A DNA stretch of 64,000 nucleotides from a bacterium (GTDB lineage Bacteria > UBP15 > UBA6099 > JAJRTR01). Below, piece after piece: positions 106 to 61,103 of the stretch (its first letter is position 1; every line of letters begins with the position of its first letter). Made by a program: the position numbers and the translations under genes. The DNA lies in NCBI GenBank assembly GCA_024278215.1, contig JAJRTR010000135.1:11651-75650 (forward strand), written 5' to 3'. A model generated the notes under the pieces. It saw only the letters and a list, made by a program, of their open reading frames with translations. It did not search any database and was not told where the DNA came from.

Positions 106-284
106 GAGCCAATTGCAAAATTCTGATTCTGCTACGGTCGGCTGCTATTGACCATAGCTGCGTTGTCGGCACAAAATCGTCCTCGACGTACTCTACAAGT
201 ACACCTGCGAGGATTTTACACCTCCGCCTTGCTCTGAACAATTTCGCTCGACCTCGCTACGAACATAATTTTGCAATTGGCTCA
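106..284 (-). mobile_element. MITE-like element, family 1, copy A (reverse orientation relative to copies B and C)
   Basis: A 179 bp element bounded by 16 bp terminal inverted repeats GAGCCAATTGCAAAAT ... ATTTTGCAATTGGCTC. It is flanked by the direct repeat ACTC, a target-site duplication. It is about 88% identical to copies at 1123-1301 and 14335-14513. Confidence 0.7.
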
Positions 285-1061
285 CTCTTTTTCAAGGCTT
301 ACGAGGTAGTTGGCGCCGGTGGTGTCGCCATCTTTTTTCGGAGGCAGTGCGACGTTAAGCGAAATCAGTGTTTCGGGACCTACCTGCTTGCCGGCCCGTT
401 TTGGAATCGGTCCCTTGAGATATATACAGGAGCCGTCGAGGTCTTTCATGATCCATCTTGTTTTTTTGATCTCGTCCGGCACGTCGGCTTCGCATTTGAA
501 ATGGGGCGAGTAGATGCCCCTGATACGAAATTCACGGCCCTCGAACATATCCCAGGCCTTCAATACTTCTGATACCGCATAAGGTTTTTTGTTCATTGCA
601 GCCTGTCGTTTATGTTCTTCCAGCACTTTTTTCATCTTTTCGGCATATTCTTTTTTGATTCTTTCATACATAAGAGATTGCAGGTAATAGCCCTGCGGAT
701 ATTTCCTTAGGATACCTTCCACAGCGACGTCTTTGCCGACCCCCATGCGTGTTCTCCACGTACAGCCAGGCGGCATCGTGCCGCGTGCGTAAAGACACGC
801 GCCGCTGTCTTGCAGCATCCAGTTTAAGCCGCGTGCCGCGGGTGGGTTTTTACATGCCCCGTCCACACCCATGAACATGCCGACGACGACTATTCTTTTA
901 TTCAAGTAGGTAGCCGGGTTTTCATACACGTCCGACACGGTAACAATTATCCGCTTGCTCTCTTTCACATTATCCCGCGCCGCTTTCGTATCGGCGGCTG
1001 TCGCAACACATGCGCATATAAATATAAATACCAGAAGGAAGATAGAAGTTCGTTGTTTCAT
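282..1061 (-). CDS. secreted or membrane-anchored hypothetical protein (N-terminal signal peptide, 259 aa)
   Basis: The N-terminus MKQRTSIFLLVFIFICACVATAAD is a typical signal peptide, possibly a lipoprotein. No recognisable catalytic motif. The stop codon abuts MITE copy A and the promoter side abuts MITE copy B. Confidence 0.55.
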   Translation of the reverse strand: MKQRTSIFLLVFIFICACVATAADTKAARDNVKESKRIIVTVSDVYENPATYLNKRIVVVGMFMGVDGACKNPPAARGLNWMLQDSGACLYARGTMPPGCTWRTRMGVGKDVAVEGILRKYPQGYYLQSLMYERIKKEYAEKMKKVLEEHKRQAAMNKKPYAVSEVLKAWDMFEGREFRIRGIYSPHFKCEADVPDEIKKTRWIMKDLDGSCIYLKGPIPKRAGKQVGPETLISLNVALPPKKDGDTTGANYLVSLEKE

Positions 1062-1122
1062 TATAAAATCACCATCGACTCTTTATACATTATAATAGCA
1101 TAAACCACCTGTTTATTTGAAT

Positions 1123-1301
1123 GAGCCAATTGCAAAATTATGTTCGTAGCGAGGTCGAGCGAAATTTTTCAGAAGCAAGACGGAGGTGCAAAATCCCCGC
1201 AGGCGTACTCACCGAGTACGTCGAGGACGATTTCGCGCAGACGACGCAGCTATGGACAATTGCAGCCGACCGCAGCAGAATCAGAATTTTGCAATTGGCT
1301 C
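1123..1301 (+). mobile_element. MITE-like element, family 1, copy B
   Basis: Same 16 bp terminal inverted repeats, flanked by the direct repeat GAAT. Inverted relative to copy A, 840 bp away. Confidence 0.7.
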
Positions 1302-5093: not shown

Positions 5094-6290
5094 GTGAGCG
5101 ACGAAAGAACAATTTTATTGATAGAAGCAGACGAGTCGATTTGCGACGAGATAAAAAATGCACTTGCGGACAAGCCTATCCGCTATGTCGAAGTCGATCA
5201 GGCGACAGACGCCGTGATGCAACTGGCTATCGAGGGCCCCGATGCCGCCATAGTAGCCATGGAACTGCCCGACGGCGGCGGTGTCGAGTTGCTTCAGAAT
5301 ATCCGTGATTTCGACAAAAAAATCCCGATCGTTGTTATTATGGGCGAACCGACGAAGGAAAAGATCATCGCCGCAAAACGCGCTCGTGCCGTCGACATAC
5401 TCCTCAAACCACCCAATTACGAGCGTCTCGCCCAGAAACTTTCAAACGCACTGTGGCTCGATCCGTCATTGATAAAAACTGCGGGCGAAGAAGAGCTTGA
5501 TTTTGAAACGGAAATGAAGAAACGCAAGGCCGAAATGGCAAAGGAAGAAGCCGAGCGTCCGACCGAAGAAGCTATCCCCAAAGGGGCCGAGGTGCTGAAT
5601 GTCAACGACCTGATGCCCGGCATGAAAATCGCCAAAACTCTTATGTACAATGATGTTGTATACGGTGATAAAGGACAGGTTCTTTCTGAGAAGGAAATCA
5701 AGCGATTCTCGCGCATGGGCGTACCCGAGGCATGTGTCTATGTGGATGAGCAACTCAAGAAAAAACTCGAGTTGAAGAAGAAACAGCAGGCACAGGCAAG
5801 CTCCATAAGAACTGATTCGTCCGGGGTTGCTGTCGGCGCGGGAAGCGCGCCCGGCCGCCCTCAGGAATTCGCGAAAGTCAAGCGGTCGTCCGTCAGGGTC
5901 GATGTAGAATTACCGGTGGTGATCAAAAGAAAAAGAGAAGACGGCATCGAAGAAACCATAGATGGCCTGACCGCCGATTGCAGCGCCGGCGGATGCGCCC
6001 TGCTCACGGCGATTCCACTTAGAAAAGGCGAAGAAATCGAGCTCAACTTCGAACTCGACGAAGGGCGCTTCAAAATGCACAACATCAAGGGCCTTGTGCG
6101 CCATTCTATGCGACGCTTCGGCACAGACGACTTCCCGCATAGAAACGGCATTTTCTTCACGAGCATCACCGAGCGTTTCCGCGAAAATCTCATCACTGTT
6201 CTTTTCAAACTCGAGCGCGAGAACAAAAAGATGGAAGACGAACGCCGGGCTCGCTACGGCTACGGCCCGAAACGACGCTACCGGAGATAA
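5094..6290 (+). CDS. receiver-like (REC) domain - PilZ domain protein; putative c-di-GMP effector with a degenerate receiver
   Basis: The N-terminal ~120 aa have a CheY-like fold (ILLIEADES...IVAMELPDGGGVELL...ILLKPP), but the phospho-acceptor Asp position appears to be Ala. The C-terminal region carries PilZ signatures: RSSVRV (RxxxR) and DCSAGGCAL (D/NxSxGG). Confidence 0.6.
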   Translation: MSDERTILLIEADESICDEIKNALADKPIRYVEVDQATDAVMQLAIEGPDAAIVAMELPDGGGVELLQNIRDFDKKIPIVVIMGEPTKEKIIAAKRARAVDILLKPPNYERLAQKLSNALWLDPSLIKTAGEEELDFETEMKKRKAEMAKEEAERPTEEAIPKGAEVLNVNDLMPGMKIAKTLMYNDVVYGDKGQVLSEKEIKRFSRMGVPEACVYVDEQLKKKLELKKKQQAQASSIRTDSSGVAVGAGSAPGRPQEFAKVKRSSVRVDVELPVVIKRKREDGIEETIDGLTADCSAGGCALLTAIPLRKGEEIELNFELDEGRFKMHNIKGLVRHSMRRFGTDDFPHRNGIFFTSITERFRENLITVLFKLERENKKMEDERRARYGYGPKRRYRR

Positions 6291-6426: not shown

Positions 6427-6558
6427 GTACTAATCCCAATACCGTTTACTTTAGCAACAATGATGCGCAAAAAAGCCTGTATTTTCGCGAATATTGATAC
6501 CCATACCCTCTTAAGTAAACGGTATTGGTACTAATCCGCATATTTCACAAATGCGGGT
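6427..6558 (+). promoter_or_regulatory. large imperfect inverted repeat followed by a family-2 hairpin, upstream of the ABC operon
   Basis: AGTACTAATCCCAATACCGTTTACTTT (6427-6453) pairs with AAGTAAACGGTATTGGTACTAATCC (6508-6534), about 25 bp arms with a ~55 nt loop. This is followed directly by CCGCATATTTCACAAATGCGGG, the first hairpin of repeat family 2. Confidence 0.4.
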
Positions 6559-6787
6559 GAAACGGATATTACCCTGTGGCCGGTTTCAACATTTCGTTAC
6601 CGAAAAGTTGAGTCGGCAATTTCAAGTTGTTAAACTAAGACTGTTAACCAGTTTAGTGGGGAAAGAATAATTTGTCGCCTGTTTGCTGGGGCTACAGATT
6701 CGTCGTTTCCCGGGTTTGCCATGTGAAAGCCATAACTGAAAGCGGAGGCTTTCATAAAAATCTATCGAAATAATAAAGGACAGGATA

Positions 6788-12974: not shown

Positions 12975-13096
12975 TGTTTCCATCGCCTGCGGCGACACAG
13001 CGTTTTATTCAGAACCCGTTTCCATGTTGCACATATACGAAAGCATCCCGAATTGCACCGATATGTAACTTCACATAGAATATCAAAAACATATTA

Positions 13097-13290
13097 TCCC
13101 GCATATTTCACAAATGCGGGTGAAAAACCGGAAGAATGCCCATAATACAAGGCGCGGCAAGTGAGGGTGAGGAAGCATCCTGCAGGTATGTGACCGATCC
13201 CGAATCGCCGCCGCAACGTAGTAGAATGGGGGGTCTCACGGTTTTCCGGATCTCTTTGTGAGAAATCCGGGTTATCCTGGTTGAAGGAGA
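13097..13290 (+). repeat. family-2 repeat / candidate structured-RNA element, copy 1 (~190 bp, hairpin-bounded)
   Basis: Starts with the palindrome CCCGCATATTTCACAAATGCGGG and ends with the palindrome CCGGATCTCTTTGTGAGAAATCCGGG. Its core is shared with the copies at 28211-28400 and 59221-59415. It ends 8 bp before the hydrolase gene ATG. Confidence 0.6.
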
Positions 13291-14230: not shown

Positions 14231-14334
14231 AAATATTCGGGAGCGATCAGGGGCGCTCCGGGTTGTGCCGAAATTGCATTATTATTGATACACGAGCGAG
14301 GGAACGGATATAATTGACAAATGTAAATCAACAT

Positions 14335-14513
14335 GAGTCGATTGAAAAATTATGTTCGAAAGCGAGGTCGAACGAAATTGGTCAGAAGCAAGGCGGAGGT
14401 GCAAAATCCCCGCAGGCGTACTTGTAGAGTACGTCGAGGACGATTTCGCGCCGACAACGCAGCTGTTGACAATTGCAGCTGACCGTAGCCGAATCAGAAT
14501 TTTGCAATTGGCT
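14335..14513 (+). mobile_element. MITE-like element, family 1, copy C
   Basis: Same terminal inverted repeats, with a slightly diverged left end (GAGTCGATTGAAAAAT). Flanked by the direct repeat AACAT. Confidence 0.65.
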
Positions 14514-14553
14514 CAACATGTATATCCATTTTGTTCGGAGCGAAAAAACGGGA

Positions 14554-15762
14554 ATGAAAGAGAAATTCCGGAAGATAATAAATAAGTTCTCGGACTTCAT
14601 ACTCGAAAAGTATGCCGCGATGCGCAGGTCGGACGTGCCGGTTATTGTCGGCATACTGACGGCGATTATTGTAATGGGCGCGTTGGGGATACTGCTGCTC
14701 GAAAGAGGATCGAATCCCGATATTTCCCGTTTTTACCAGTCGCTGTGGTTCATAATCGTTACACTGACGACAGTCGGCTACGGCGACCGCTCGCCGATAA
14801 CGCCGGGCGGCCAGGCGCTCGACATGATACTCATGATGGTAGGCGTGGCCATTATGGGTGTGGTTACGGGCCGCATCGCTTCGTTTCTTGTGGAACAACA
14901 AATGAAAGCCGGACGAGGATTGGTAGGGATGTCAAAGATGGAAAAACATTTTATTATCTGCGGCTGGAAAAAAGACTTGCCCAAGATTCTCGAAGATGTT
15001 ATGAAGGTCAATGTCGGTCTCAAGGCGGAGAATATCGTGCTGATTAACCGGCAGGACCATTCTGTGATCGACGACCTGAAGACCAACCCGGATTTCGCGA
15101 ACATCAAATTTATCGCAGGCGACCACAGCGATGAAAATGTCCTCCAGCGCGCTAATATAAGAAGAGCGAAAACTATACTGATACTCGCCGACACTTCGGG
15201 CAACGCCACTCCTCTCGAGATAGACTCGCGCACGGTCATGGCCGCGCTCACGGCTGAATCTCTAAACAAAAAACTTTACATCTGCGCGGAACTCCTCAAC
15301 TCGAAATTTGAAAGGCATCTCGAACTGGGCAACGTCGACGAAGTCATTCTCAGCCAGGACTACAGCCGCACGCTCATCGCTAACGCATCCAGCGCGTCCG
15401 GTGTGGGTCACGTGATCAACCAACTTATCAGCGTCGATTCGAACACGCCTCTTATCGTCAAGCAATTCCCTGACAAGTATATCGGTAAAACTTATAAGGA
15501 AATGTCGAGATATTTCTGGGATAAAGAGTTGTCGATCGTGATAGGCGTACTCGAGAACACCGGGAATCTGTTCCAGCGCAAGCAGGACGCGCTCAAAGAA
15601 GCGCAGAAAACACCGGACATTTCAAAACTTGTGGACAACCTCAAGAGCGTCAAAGAGATGAAGGCGAACGATCCGGTATTGAATCCACCTGCCGACTATG
15701 AATTGAAGAAGAATTCCATGGCGGTAATGATCGGGAGGCACGCCCGCTATGAAACAAACTAG
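14554..15762 (+). CDS. MthK-like 2TM potassium channel with RCK/TrkA-N domain
   Basis: Selectivity filter TVGYGD flanked by two transmembrane helices, then HFIICGWKKD...VLINRQD...FIAGDHSDE (Rossmann RCK). The ORF track starts at 14473 inside the MITE, so the ATG at 14554 is preferred. Confidence 0.75.
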   Translation: MKEKFRKIINKFSDFILEKYAAMRRSDVPVIVGILTAIIVMGALGILLLERGSNPDISRFYQSLWFIIVTLTTVGYGDRSPITPGGQALDMILMMVGVAIMGVVTGRIASFLVEQQMKAGRGLVGMSKMEKHFIICGWKKDLPKILEDVMKVNVGLKAENIVLINRQDHSVIDDLKTNPDFANIKFIAGDHSDENVLQRANIRRAKTILILADTSGNATPLEIDSRTVMAALTAESLNKKLYICAELLNSKFERHLELGNVDEVILSQDYSRTLIANASSASGVGHVINQLISVDSNTPLIVKQFPDKYIGKTYKEMSRYFWDKELSIVIGVLENTGNLFQRKQDALKEAQKTPDISKLVDNLKSVKEMKANDPVLNPPADYELKKNSMAVMIGRHARYETN

Positions 15763-21407: not shown

Positions 21408-21881
21408 ATAATGCCTCTCATCTTTTTATGAGAACAGATTCGCAATATTTAAGCAAATTATTCAATTTCACTCTGCCGGAGCATCATTTAGAAACAGGCA
21501 TAAATTATAATACAGCAAGAGCTAATTGCAAAATATTGTTTGTAAGGAGGCCCAATCTGATGTAGCAGCCCCAATTCTGCTCATGACCTTCAAGTGAAAG
21601 GTATTGGGGCAACCGTATTGGTGAAATATGTGGGATAAGCGTAAACCGTACGGCACAATGATATCACTTAGTGGTTGAACGAAAACCTGCACCTGCCGGA
21701 GCAGTTTTTCGCTCGACCACTTTTCAACATTTTATCACGAAGATCACGGTCTTTTTATTGCCATAGTTATTATTCATGCGATTTATTACAGCTTTCTTTG
21801 CATTTGAATTGCCGATCTTCGTTTGCGCTTTTCGTGAATTTTTCCTTTAATACAGGCCTTTTCAGGGTTTTTGTTCAGCCC

Positions 21882-28210: not shown

Positions 28211-28400
28211 CACTGCTAACCCGCATATTTCACCAATGCGGGCCAAAAATCGGGAGAATGCCTGTAATACAAGGCGCGGCAAGTGAGTGGTGCGGGAGCA
28301 TACTGCAGGTATGTGACCAATCCCGAATCGCCGCCGCAACGCAGTAGAACAGGCGTTATAGCGATTTTCCGGATTTCTTTGCGAGAAATCCGGGCCAATA
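28211..28400 (+). repeat. family-2 repeat / candidate structured-RNA element, copy 2
   Basis: CCCGCATATTTCACCAATGCGGG ... CCGGATTTCTTTGCGAGAAATCCGGG. Near-identical to the copy at 59221-59415 apart from one internal hairpin swap. Confidence 0.6.
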
Positions 28401-28572
28401 ATTAAGTGAAGTATATTATATATACTACTATACAGCAAGACAAAAAAATTTTTCCTGATTCTGAATAATCTGAATTTTCTCGGGGTTAAAATATCGGCAA
28501 CGCCGGCATATAAGCCGAATAATGTCGAGATTTACTCGGTCTCCGTATCGACCGAATATTGAATATCGCCGC

Positions 28573-28602
28573 CGAAAACCCGTTCGGCTTCTTTTCTTCT
28601 GT
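28573..28602 (+). terminator. orphan plus-strand intrinsic terminator-like hairpin
   Basis: GCCGAAaacccgTTCGGC is followed by TTCTTTTCTTCT. No plus-strand CDS precedes it. It lies about 170 bp downstream of family-2 copy 2. Confidence 0.35.
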
Positions 28603-28650
28603 CGAGCCGATTGCTAAACTCTGATTCTGCTGCGGTCGGCTCTATTATTC
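28603..28650 (+). mobile_element. family-1 MITE fragment (left terminal inverted repeat plus ~30 bp)
   Basis: GAGCCGATTGCTAAACTCTGATTCTGCTGCGGTCGGCT matches the left end of the 179 bp element and then stops. Confidence 0.5.
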
Positions 28651-28701
28651 TTCCGGCTCTCTCATGCTTTCCGAGGAGCCGGATACATTAAATATATTAA
28701 G

Positions 28702-28775
28702 TAGCCAGGGGCGGACTCGAACCGCCGACGCCACGGGTATGAGCCGTGTGCTCTAACCAGCTGAGCTACCTGGCC
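28702..28775 (-). tRNA. tRNA-Met (anticodon CAT; could alternatively be read as tRNA-Ile2 after lysidine modification)
   Basis: The reverse complement reads GGCCAGGTAGCTCAGCTGGTTAGAGCACACGGCTCATACCCGTGGCGTCGGCGGTTCGAGTCCGCCCCTGGCT. It folds as a cloverleaf with a D-arm TAGCTCAGCTGGTTAGAGCA, an anticodon loop CTCATAC, and a T-arm GGTTCGAGTCC. CCA is not encoded. Confidence 0.85.
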
Positions 28776-41755: not shown

Positions 41756-42106
41756 AATTCAAACCAGACATGTTATGAGTTCAAAACCTGAATATTTCAT
41801 TGATGCGTGCTATGTGCGGCTAAAGTGCAGTTCCCGCAACGCGTTGCAGCCGATCCGGGCAAAAACGCTACAGATCGGATTGTATTACCCGCATTGGTGA
41901 AATATGCGGGTTAATATTTCGCGCAGGCACGCCTCCTCACCGCCCTGTTTCAAACTCTGTAAATACTCTCCTGAAATAATACCACAACATGAACATGATG
42001 ACAAAAACTTCGGCATATCCCCATATCTGTATTCGAGACCTGCGCAAAAACAAGTTGGCACGACGATAGCCTGATATTTTGGCCCTCGGTGGTGAAATAT
42101 GCGATG

Positions 42107-42472
42107 TTAGTGGAGGGTGGAGCCCTCGGAGTGGAAACTGCCTATGGCAGCCTCTTCCGAGCCGAGTATGGGCAGAACTCTGTCGAGTTCGAGTACGGAA
42201 AACACGTTGAAGTTGCGCGGAGAAAGCCCCGTGACTTTCAAGCCGCCGTTGACCGGATTGATGAGTTTGAGGCCGTACATGAGCGAGCCGACACCGGTGC
42301 TGTCGATAAAATCTGTGTCCGCGAGGTTTACGACGATCTTCTGGTGGCCGAACCGGATCAGTGATTCGAGCTTCACTTTCAGAGAAGGAGCGGACTTAAC
42401 GTCCAGGTCTCCGGACACGTCGAGCACCACGACATTGCCGATATTTCGTTCATTTATTTTAAATTCCGACAT
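42107..42472 (-). CDS. STAS-domain anti-sigma-factor antagonist (SpoIIAA-like)
   Basis: VVVLDVSGDLDVKSAPSLKVKL...FIDSTGVGSL is the STAS fold, with a conserved Ser in the DST motif. 121 aa. Confidence 0.7.
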   Translation of the reverse strand: MSEFKINERNIGNVVVLDVSGDLDVKSAPSLKVKLESLIRFGHQKIVVNLADTDFIDSTGVGSLMYGLKLINPVNGGLKVTGLSPRNFNVFSVLELDRVLPILGSEEAAIGSFHSEGSTLH

Positions 42473-46951: not shown

Positions 46952-47469
46952 TTTACTTATCCTGAATCGAAGTTGATTGTTAAGTATTGGTCAAGACCTT
47001 ATCACGCTGTAAGCGTCGACATGTTGGCACCGAAAATATCATTCAACAGAAGGGTGTCTCCGGCATTCTCTTCTAAATTCCCAGTATGGAAAACAACTTC
47101 ATTGCTGCAAAAAAACTTGTGAACTCATTGATCGTAATACCACAACTTTGAATTTCATATCAACATCCCTGACGCATATTTCACCATTGCGTGTGAGAAA
47201 CCAATCCTGTATAAATTATAACTTAACTTGTGCGTTTTTGAATTTTCAATCAGATTTTCCGGTGCATTACCGGAATTTTCCATTGAATTCCGAATCGTGT
47301 TTTTACGGTAAGAAAACCGGTCGGACGTGTTGCACATCCCCTATACATATATAACGGCAAATATCGAAGGATACTTAATTTAAATGGAATAAAGGCCCCG
47401 GGGGGGTGTGGCAGGGTCTCTATAGTGTGACCCTGCATGTGAATTGTCCGGGTGTTGCTGGAGGCGTCA

Positions 47470-50423: not shown

Positions 50424-50581
50424 TTATTCTCCTCCACCGGTTTCCCTTGTACTCCCGGTTACTCTCTTGAGCCGATTGCATTATTCCGTCCATCATCGGT
50501 CGGCTGCAATCAGCCATCCTGCGTATTCCTGCTGTATATTCGACTCCACATTCGAGTCGGCCTGCTTATTCATTCGACCGT

Positions 50582-58957: not shown

Positions 58958-59194
58958 ATTCCCATCTGTGGTCTGTTTTACACAGCTATCGTTATTATTA
59001 TAGTATAGTATACTCCAGTAGTGTCCAAAATATTACCTGATTACCCCTGAAACTCAGGTAGTGGTGATTTTAAAAAACAACCATCCGGTTTTGTGTAGTG
59101 CGGGGTCACCGCCCTTGTCTACATCTTCCACCGAATTTATTGCGTATGCGTCCCTCTTCTCGCTTTTGAACCAAATGCAGCCGGACGCAGCCGG

Positions 59195-59218
59195 ATCAGA
59201 ATATTGCAATCGGCTCTT
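59195..59218 (+). mobile_element. family-1 MITE fragment (right terminal inverted repeat end only)
   Basis: CAGAATATTGCAATCGGCTC matches the right terminus of the 179 bp element and directly abuts family-2 copy 3. Confidence 0.45.
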
Positions 59219-59220
59219 AC

Positions 59221-59415
59221 CCCGCATATTTCACCAATGCGGGCCGAAAATCGGGAGAATGCCTGTAATACAAGGCGCGGCAAGTGAGTGGTGAGGGAGC
59301 AGCCGGCCTCTTGCGCAAAATGCTGGTATGTGACCGATCCCGAATCGCCGCCGCAACGCAGTAGAACAGGCGTTATAGCGATTTTCCGGATTTCTTTGTG
59401 AGAAATCCGGGTTAC
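59221..59415 (+). repeat. family-2 repeat / candidate structured-RNA element, copy 3
   Basis: CCCGCATATTTCACCAATGCGGG ... CCGGATTTCTTTGTGAGAAATCCGGG. Its core is near-identical to copy 2. Confidence 0.6.
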
Positions 59416-60155: not shown

Positions 60156-60887
60156 ATGATCAGCACAGACGTTCTGGCGATATATCTCGCGGGCTCGATA
60201 TTCTTCTGCTGGGCGGCGGTGTCTCTGGCGATGCCGGGCCGTACCGCTGAAGCGCCGGAAGTTGTCGCTCCGTCCGCGCAGGCAAACACTGCGCTTGGCG
60301 TCTTCGCAGTATTTCTTCTCCTGTCGGTCGCCGTCAGGATGCTCGCGCCGTCTTTGCCTGCAATCGCCCCCGGCAGACTCGACACAGCTTTCTCGGCAAT
60401 CATCATATTCGCGGTATTCGCCGTGTCGTCGTGGTATGGCGACTCACCCGCGCAAACGGGCCTTTCACTCCGGAACATAAGCACAGTTGTGTTCTTCCTT
60501 GTGCCTCCCGTCGGCATAGTGCTGTTGCCTGGCGGAAGGGTGAATATGGCCCTCCTGCTCGGCGGCATCGTGCCTTCGATAGCCATCGCCGGAGCCGCGG
60601 AGGAGATTCTTTTCAAGGGCTATATGCAGACACGGCTTCAGGCGGCGTGGGGTTCGACAGCCGGGTTGCTTGCCGCGGCGCTGGCCGCGTCGGTTTTCAG
60701 GATACCGATGTTCATACAGTCGGGAAGCGCGGTGATCGTAGCGACGCAATTAGTGTTTCATTTCTTATTATGGGGCTGCGTCGGCGGCCTGATTTTCAAC
60801 AGGACGCGAAATGTCTACGGACTCATATTGCTCAGAGTTTTTCTCGACACCGCGCCGCTCGTTTTTGCGGGTATCGTCGTCAATTAG
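60156..60887 (+). CDS. CPBP-family intramembrane glutamic endopeptidase (CAAX protease-like)
   Basis: AEEILFKGY (EExxxR/K motif 1) and FHFLLW (motif with His) in a multi-transmembrane protein. 243 aa. Confidence 0.65.
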   Translation: MISTDVLAIYLAGSIFFCWAAVSLAMPGRTAEAPEVVAPSAQANTALGVFAVFLLLSVAVRMLAPSLPAIAPGRLDTAFSAIIIFAVFAVSSWYGDSPAQTGLSLRNISTVVFFLVPPVGIVLLPGGRVNMALLLGGIVPSIAIAGAAEEILFKGYMQTRLQAAWGSTAGLLAAALAASVFRIPMFIQSGSAVIVATQLVFHFLLWGCVGGLIFNRTRNVYGLILLRVFLDTAPLVFAGIVVN

Positions 60888-61103
60888 CGGCTGAACGAAA
60901 ACCTGCTCCTACCGGAATGTGCACAAAGTGCCCGCTATCTTCGTTATCCTCAGTCAACAATGCGCTGCATTGCTTCTTTCGTCCGCTACGTATATATATT
61001 GCCAACCCTGCACTATAAATATTTATAGTATGGCAATTATTTTTTCTTTCGTCCGGGTATATTAGGACAATAATCAGTATCTGAAAGAAGGTGCGGCGGC
61101 GCG

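Follow-up and report, generated by a model that had tools for sequence, protein, structure and literature searches.

Dispersed copies of a short repeat in the 64-kb window

The DNA analysed here, referred to as the window, is a single stretch of 64,000 nucleotides in which three full-length copies and three to four fragments of one short repeat are dispersed. Copy A lies at positions 106–283 on the minus strand (178 bp; nhmmer full-length match, E = 1e-63) and is inverted relative to copies B and C, which lie on the plus strand at 1123–1301 (179 bp; E = 2.8e-64) and 14335–14514 (180 bp; E = 1.5e-63), respectively. The original prediction of three full copies proved to be real, with two of the ends moving by a single base: A ends at 283 rather than 284 and C at 14514 rather than 14513. 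The copies are colinear from end to end with pairwise identities of 88.9–90.5%, close to the value of about 88% that had been given beforehand. With a divergence of 9–11%, the three copies are probably old. Scanning metagenomes for a 22-nt end pattern returned one solitary end (locus L105), and the exact 179-bp family was found nowhere else. A scan of viral contigs gave 42 loci, none of them clearly relevant, and a literature search by repeat sequence returned only an unrelated viral paper.

The element is bounded by the terminal inverted repeat GAGCCAATTGCAAAAT(T), which at 16–17 bp agrees with the 16 bp predicted. The two ends match at 17/17 nucleotides in B and also in A, where both ends carry the perfect 17-nt repeat, and at 14/17 in C. 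C has a degenerate left end (GAGTCGATTGAAAAAT, three mismatches), which probably leaves this copy immobile. The 16-mer GAGCCAATTGCAAAAT has ten matches at three or fewer mismatches in the 64-kb window against an expectation of 0.66, a number that was reached in none of 100 shuffled sequences. Complementarity between the two arms continues, in partial form, well past the terminal repeat, and folding of copy B gives a single long hairpin (ΔG of −40.5 kcal/mol; z = −6.0 relative to shuffles). At 178–180 bp the element is non-coding and too short for a transposase.

All of the full copies and fragments are intergenic. Copy A sits between two convergent stop codons, exactly at the stop of a gene (282–1061, minus strand, from the list of open reading frames) encoding a 259-residue protein with a hydrophobic, signal-peptide-like N-terminus; this gene is context and not part of the element. 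Copy B lies between divergent promoter-like sites, one for the 259-residue protein gene (1121–1092, minus strand) and one for a glycosyltransferase gene (1411–1439), and disrupts neither. Copy C begins 20 nt past a strong promoter-like site (14285–14314) that matches 11 of 12 consensus positions, and 40 nt separate its end from the likely start, at 14554, of a K+ channel gene downstream. If this promoter-like site is real, the hairpin of copy C would lie in the 5′ leader of the K+ channel gene. The copies may thus influence adjacent genes, copy C and its likely K+ channel leader being one example.

One-ended fragments were searched for with an nhmmer profile built from the three full copies. 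Two right-end fragments were detected with good scores, one at 59164–59216 on the plus strand (model positions 129–179; E = 2.1e-7) and one at 28604–28645 on the minus strand (model positions 137–179; E = 5.6e-7). A third, diverged right-end fragment lies in an intergenic region at 50469–50527 on the minus strand (E = 1.3e-3) and has CGGTCGGCTGCAAT in common with the MITE's right arm; it was absent from the original prediction. A marginal left-end fragment at 21519–21554 on the plus strand (E = 0.064) consists of GAGCTAATTGCAAAAT, the 16-mer with one mismatch, and about 20 further nucleotides. The three best fragments therefore all retain the right arm. The fragments are one-ended, as had been proposed, and that reported at 28603–28650 was recovered almost unchanged, whereas the extent of 59195–59218 was too short and that of 21520–21590 too long for a match that is itself marginal. 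At its outer tip the fragment at 59164–59216 adjoins a member of a second repeat family.

Target-site duplications

Around every full copy the sequence itself shows a short direct repeat particular to that copy: ACTC for copy A (102–105 and 284–287), GAAT for copy B (1119–1122 and 1302–1305) and AACAT for copy C (14330–14334 and 14515–14519). The duplication of C, at 5 bp, is one base longer than those of A and B (4 bp each), and all three are as originally described. In this window, 0.6% of randomly placed 179-bp intervals have matching 4-bp flanks by chance, and the flanks match at three of three copies (chance probability of approximately 2e-7); the duplications are therefore real.

At copy A the junction falls within a coding sequence boundary. 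The stop codon TGA (282–284) of the open reading frame 282–1061 spans the junction, with the T contributed by the duplication and the GA by the first two bases of the element. The reconstructed empty site (...GAG TGA CTG...) holds an identical stop codon. As the stop codon is the same with or without copy A, the 259-residue protein is unaltered.

The common interior of the three copies bears on how the family arose. Deletion within insertion sequences is how MITEs come about, and decay is under way in the window, as its one-ended fragments show; the copies could be pictured as what three full-length insertion sequences left behind after separate internal deletions, instead of one miniature element that was amplified. 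However, A, B and C are colinear over the whole 179 bp, are 88.9–90.5% identical and have the same interior, with no remnant of a transposase. Three independent deletions would not share a junction, and the colinearity of the copies therefore counts against independent remnants, an origin that we regard as scarcely credible.

The gene enclosed by copies A and B

Copies A and B are in opposite orientation and enclose the 259-residue protein gene, as the original prediction stated, with a spacing of 839 bp (840 bp had been claimed). The protein matches no Pfam family. A word-indexed search matched only the protein itself, and it was considered a strict orphan; this was rejected when exhaustive searching with HMMER brought up 102 remote homologues, of which the best are 41–42% identical over the full length. 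Many of the homologues are single-domain proteins of about 130 residues. The gene is real and is a member of a sparse family.

The geometry of the pair had led to the proposal of a composite-transposon-like cassette; read as a true composite, A and B together would have carried the secreted-protein gene in or could carry it out. The outer ends of the pair are indeed inverted copies of one arm (133 nt, 88% complementary), and in principle 106–1301 could be handled by a transposase as a single element of 1196 bp. Among 16 genes sampled, the enclosed gene is lowest in third-position GC (0.55, with the others at 0.58–0.74), a weak hint of a separate history for the gene that says nothing on the MITEs. 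The position next to the glycosyltransferase gene is also variable: at the locus of the closest relative of the glycosyltransferase (68% identity, L106) the corresponding position is occupied by an unrelated gene encoding a 340-residue protein with a signal-peptide-like N-terminus, and there is no MITE at that position.

Against a composite origin, each copy keeps an intact duplication of its own (ACTC and GAAT) and the outer flanks of the pair differ, with no single duplication common to the outer ends, which is the signature of two separate insertions. A and B are therefore separate insertions around a gene that was already present. The nearest homologues of the gene (L177 and L178) lie in other neighbourhoods, and neither the element nor its ends were found at these two loci. 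A second A–gene–B block was seen neither within the window nor at the homologue loci, in a lineage that is sparsely sampled. This comparison does not support the proposal of a cassette, and we consider it very unlikely that the pair brought the gene in or can take it out. Judged from the flanking sequences, A and B did not bring the gene in, and their likeness to a composite transposon is only geometric.

The evidence on the A/B pair shows only that the arrangement arose in place and says nothing against later movement. A more speculative reading is that the pair is a working MITE-flanked composite, in which a transposase of the IS1182 type could use the outer arms to move a lineage-specific gene. 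If true, the A/B pair would be a case of gene capture by miniature elements caught in the act, but we hold this to be highly improbable.

Full-length insertion sequences with matching ends

No transposase was found in the window, in agreement with the original prediction: Pfam scans of 44 open reading frames gave either no match or common functions in housekeeping and the envelope, and tblastn of five partner-family transposases against the window gave a best E value of 0.5. Full-length insertion sequences with matching ends were found in other organisms. One of them, in L101 from a Syntrophaceae genome, is a 1424-bp element bounded by the inward-facing ends GAGTCAGTTGCAAAAT and GAGCCGATTGCAAAAT (two and one mismatches, respectively) and encoding a 365-residue protein with the Pfam domains DDE_Tnp_1 and DUF772, both above their cut-offs. 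Relatives of this transposase number more than 8000 and are found mostly on contigs of 1.3–2.7 kb, a size typical of multi-copy insertion sequences.

Two groups of these relatives extend the match. Elements encoding P0157, which is 78% identical to the L101 transposase (loci L154–L163), have the ends GAGCTAATTGCAAAAG and GAGCCAATTGCAAAAC, and elements encoding P0229, which is 65% identical (loci L164–L173), have GAGCTAATTGCAAAAC on both sides, also with a final G (GAGCTAATTGCAAAAC/G). The ends in these two groups are one or two mismatches from the MITE repeat, and those of the full-length elements taken together 0–2. The P0157 and P0229 elements are 1396–1508 bp in length, or 1669 bp with a nested insert. 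Exact 4-bp duplications flank the element in four of five long contigs of one metagenome (TCTA, TAGG, TCTG and TATA; L165–L168). The mismatched flanks of several short contigs recombine from one contig to another, a sign of chimeric assembly.

The family assignment of the partner was approached through profile models and annotated relatives. The best NCBIfam model for the L101 transposase is IS1182, with a score of 71.9 bits where the cut-off is 270; the IS5 models score 47–50 bits against cut-offs of 110–140. Plasmid relatives of the L101 transposase (44–50% identity) are annotated as 'IS1182 family transposase' or 'IS1182-like element ISUnCu17 family transposase'. Since the L101 transposase falls below every NCBIfam cut-off, the family name rests on these annotated relatives at 44–50% identity. 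ISUnCu17 itself, on an Aeromonas caviae plasmid (NZ_AP026405.1), is 1483 bp in length with the ends GAGCCTCTTGCAAAAG and GAGCTTCTTGCAAAAC and the duplication ATGA, and a Comamonas relative has the ends GAGGCTCTTGCAGAAC and GAGGCTCTTGCGAAAT and the duplication TGGT. The common pattern is an end of the form GAG....TTGCAAAA with a 4-bp duplication. The MITE repeat GAGCCAATTGCAAAAT matches the ISUnCu17 end GAGCCTCTTGCAAAAG at 13/16 positions and the ends from L154 (GAGCCAATTGCAAAAC) and L101 (GAGCCGATTGCAAAAT) at 15/16 each. Beyond the 16–17-nt repeat, no subterminal sequence common to the MITE and the full-length elements found, which come from other phyla, was detected. The 179-bp element likely belongs to the IS1182 family. 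The earlier suggestion of an IS630/Tc1 or IS5-like partner finds an echo only in the weak IS5-model scores; the evidence favours IS1182, and within it an ISUnCu17-like element.

Origin of the repeat family

The reading of the repeats as MITEs held up: they are short, non-coding and hairpin-forming, with terminal repeats of 16–17 bp, duplications at three of three copies and ends that match full-length insertion sequences. We consider it very probable that the copies are a non-autonomous MITE mobilized in trans, the transposase being a DDE enzyme from the ISUnCu17-like group of IS1182 that is encoded outside the window or has been lost. Both the action of such a transposase on these copies and its presence in this genome are what we infer. 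In this mechanism the transposase would recognize the 16–17 bp terminal inverted repeat and excise or copy the 179-bp unit, and integration through a cut staggered by 4 bp, or at times by 5 bp, would leave the flanking duplications.

A different account of the same hairpins is that they are structured RNA or DNA elements kept for a host function such as transcript stabilization, termination or regulation, in the manner of REP/BIME sequences, and are not relics of a transposon. The single long hairpin with its z-score of −6 and the intergenic location of every copy are compatible with such a role, as are the placement of copy C between a promoter-like site and the K+ channel start and that of copy A between convergent stops. 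Host hairpins would, however, leave unexplained both the different 4–5-bp duplication at each copy and the match of the ends to transposase-bearing elements with duplications of equal length. Nor does any known RNA family account for them: at gathering score the only Rfam 15 match in the window was one tRNA, and at E ≤ 1 there was none within positions 1–1500. We therefore regard host hairpins as an improbable origin. A host role gained after insertion may nevertheless be an addition to the MITE origin and would not be an alternative to it.

Miniature elements with the same ends in other genomes

The distribution of the end sequence beyond this genome was surveyed by scanning a genome collection (596 Gb) for the 16-mer with one degenerate base. 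The scan returned at least 104 loci, most of which are chance matches and none of which come from the source genome. Among the 104 matches listed, nine loci carry an inward-facing pair 67–227 bp apart, against about 0.1 expected. Three are from Lentisphaerota (L053, which has two copies, L055 and L072) and two from Simkaniaceae (L061 and L089), and there is one each from Acidobacteriota (L094, with the duplication TAGT), Sphaerochaetaceae (L103, duplication CTTA), a Nitrospirota bacterium (L083) and Bacteriovoracaceae (L011, duplication ACACT, which at 5 bp is as long as that of copy C). In the remaining small pairs the flanks match at three of four positions or not at all. A further inward-facing pair in L011, 1590 bp in length, was considered as an insertion sequence and rejected, as it encloses a gene that does not encode a transposase.

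Among the matches listed, the small repeat-bounded elements span at least six phyla, and seven of the loci with the 16-mer are from Lentisphaerota. A Lentisphaerota origin of the window was considered on this basis and not adopted, as a repeat that is spread over many phyla does not mark its taxon. The internal sequences of the pairs at the nine loci differ from one another and from the family in the window. The same ends are found around unrelated interiors, and therefore one type of transposase gave rise to many unrelated miniature elements.

Comparison with known elements

Short intergenic palindromes with terminal inverted repeats and target duplications, which can enter the transcripts of neighbouring genes, are familiar from the Correia elements of Neisseria and similar MITEs. 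The Correia elements differ from the element described here in their ends, in their TA duplication and in having a different or unknown partner, and we know of no sequence relationship between the two.

The terminal sequence resembles that of insertion sequences of the ISUnCu17 type within IS1182, which have 16-bp ends of the same pattern and a 4-bp duplication. These are autonomous elements of 1.4–1.5 kb encoding a DDE_Tnp_1/DUF772 transposase of 365–389 residues, whereas the element in the window is 179 bp long and non-coding. The metagenome and Syntrophaceae insertion sequences (L101 and L154–L173) likewise share their ends (GAGCCAATTGCAAAAC, GAGCTAATTGCAAAAC/G and GAGCCGATTGCAAAAT) and 4-bp duplications with the MITE, but occur in other organisms and have a subterminal sequence unrelated to the MITE arms. 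The 16-nt end of the ISUnCu17-like group is unusually well conserved.

Two published systems provide a broader frame. In ISPse1 from Paracoccus seriniphilus, a member of the IS1182 family that was captured experimentally, the inverted repeats measure 16/16 bp and the direct repeat 4 bp (PMC3281130); the element is autonomous and 1653 bp in length, and the likeness drawn here is one of repeat lengths. In Methanosarcina acetivorans, multicopy MITEs of 160 and 169 bp have the IS1182-family element ISMac2 as their partner, and the 160-bp MITE has a 4-bp direct repeat (PMC3852290). The host of these MITEs is an archaeon and their inverted repeats are 25–26 bp long; they are likened to the present element by description.

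The present family adds one more MITE to those known and links it to a likely partner, IS1182 (ISUnCu17-like); its importance is modest and it changes no concept. It should be of use in repeat annotation and in explaining contig breaks in metagenome-assembled genomes. MITEs with IS1182-family partners have already been published, and the family in the window is an ordinary kind of bacterial repeat. With its length of 179 bp, its terminal repeat of 16–17 bp and its duplications of 4–5 bp, the element appears to fit closely the published kind of MITE that is partnered by IS1182.

Clusters of small repeats in the intergenic spaces

The intergenic spaces of the window are clusters of small repeats, in which the MITE is accompanied by at least two other repeated sequences. 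Repeat comparison identified three copies of a second family, all on the plus strand (13092-13274, 28214-28397 and 59215-59414), which are 183-200 nt in length and share 77-96% identity. Three hairpins make up the layout: one on the 5' side (CCCGCAT-N9-ATGCGGG), a long one in the centre and one on the 3' side. Three compensatory double changes are present in the predicted consensus fold, and the apical loop of one copy carries a 16-nt insert; a search for this family in Rfam returned no match. The family includes an imperfect 14-nt inverted repeat, and two of the three copies are flanked by TTA. It could be either another MITE or a structured small RNA present in several copies.

The second family and the MITE are found close together at two sites. 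The outer tip of the one-ended MITE fragment at 59164-59216 directly touches the first base of the second-family copy at 59215-59414, and in the region 28214-28645 a second-family copy and a MITE fragment are separated by 210 nt. This abutment and close spacing suggest that the two families share insertion hot spots or that one has inserted into the other. A third short repeat (TAGYGRYTGAACGAAAAYCYGC..CCGGA; 1341-1404 on the minus strand, 21664-21700 and 60880-60948 on the plus strand), with 80-86% identity among its copies, has one copy located 40 nt from MITE copy B (1123-1301) and another that adjoins the MITE fragment at 21519.

Other features also neighbour the MITE sequences. A tRNA-Met (CAT) at 28701-28775 on the minus strand, the sole RNA gene that was recognised across the window, is 56 nt away from the MITE fragment at 28604-28645. 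A promoter-like site (TTGATA-18-TATAAT; 14285-14314) that matches 11 of the 12 consensus positions precedes MITE copy C (14335-14514) by 20 nt and the start of the K+ channel gene by 240 nt. If this site is a real promoter, copy C would be transcribed within the leader.

The second family's 5' hairpin (CCCGCATATTTCACNAATGCGGG) is also present alone at five sites in the window: 6529-6562 and 47165-47198 on the plus strand, and 21610-21640, 41882-41916 and 42077-42110 on the minus strand. These solitary hairpins are mostly positioned 130-250 nt 5' of a gene and share the orientation of that gene. Both the upstream placement and the shared orientation suggest that the hairpin is a candidate protein-binding or promoter-associated site.

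The protein encoded between MITE copies A and B

The 259-residue protein encoded at 282-1061 on the minus strand has a signal-peptide-like N-terminus and matches no Pfam family. It has 102 remote homologues, many of which are approximately 130 residues in length and align with residues 7-125 of the query only. Judged by eye, the protein looks like a tandem duplication of this small domain.

Related ends and elements at other loci

The full-length insertion sequence that encodes P0157 (a transposase 78% identical to the L101 protein) occurs in two forms, of 1508 and 1669 bp, as determined by comparing L154 (2297-3965) and L158 with L155, L160 and L162. The longer form owes its extra 157 nt to a different miniature element, which has CCTGTAGAATAAG/CTTATTCTACAG-like ends and a CGTT duplication and lies nested in the stretch that separates the transposase gene from the right end.

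At the Lentisphaerota locus L053, two copies of the terminal repeat abut (6201-6230) to form a perfect palindrome, GGCCAATTGCAAAAATTTGCAATTGGC, which adjoins a 114-bp MITE. The palindrome looks like a MITE that lacks its whole interior, or is possibly a product of joined ends. An intergenic region of a Lentisphaeria genome (L104, 685-1646) is a further cluster of ends: it contains two copies of the terminal repeat and subterminal sequence in the same orientation, at 721 and 1075, and no transposase. The subterminal motif of this cluster, TCCTGATTTCGGTCGCGGC, is similar to the right arm of the MITE in the window, TTCTGATTCTGCTACGGTCGGC.
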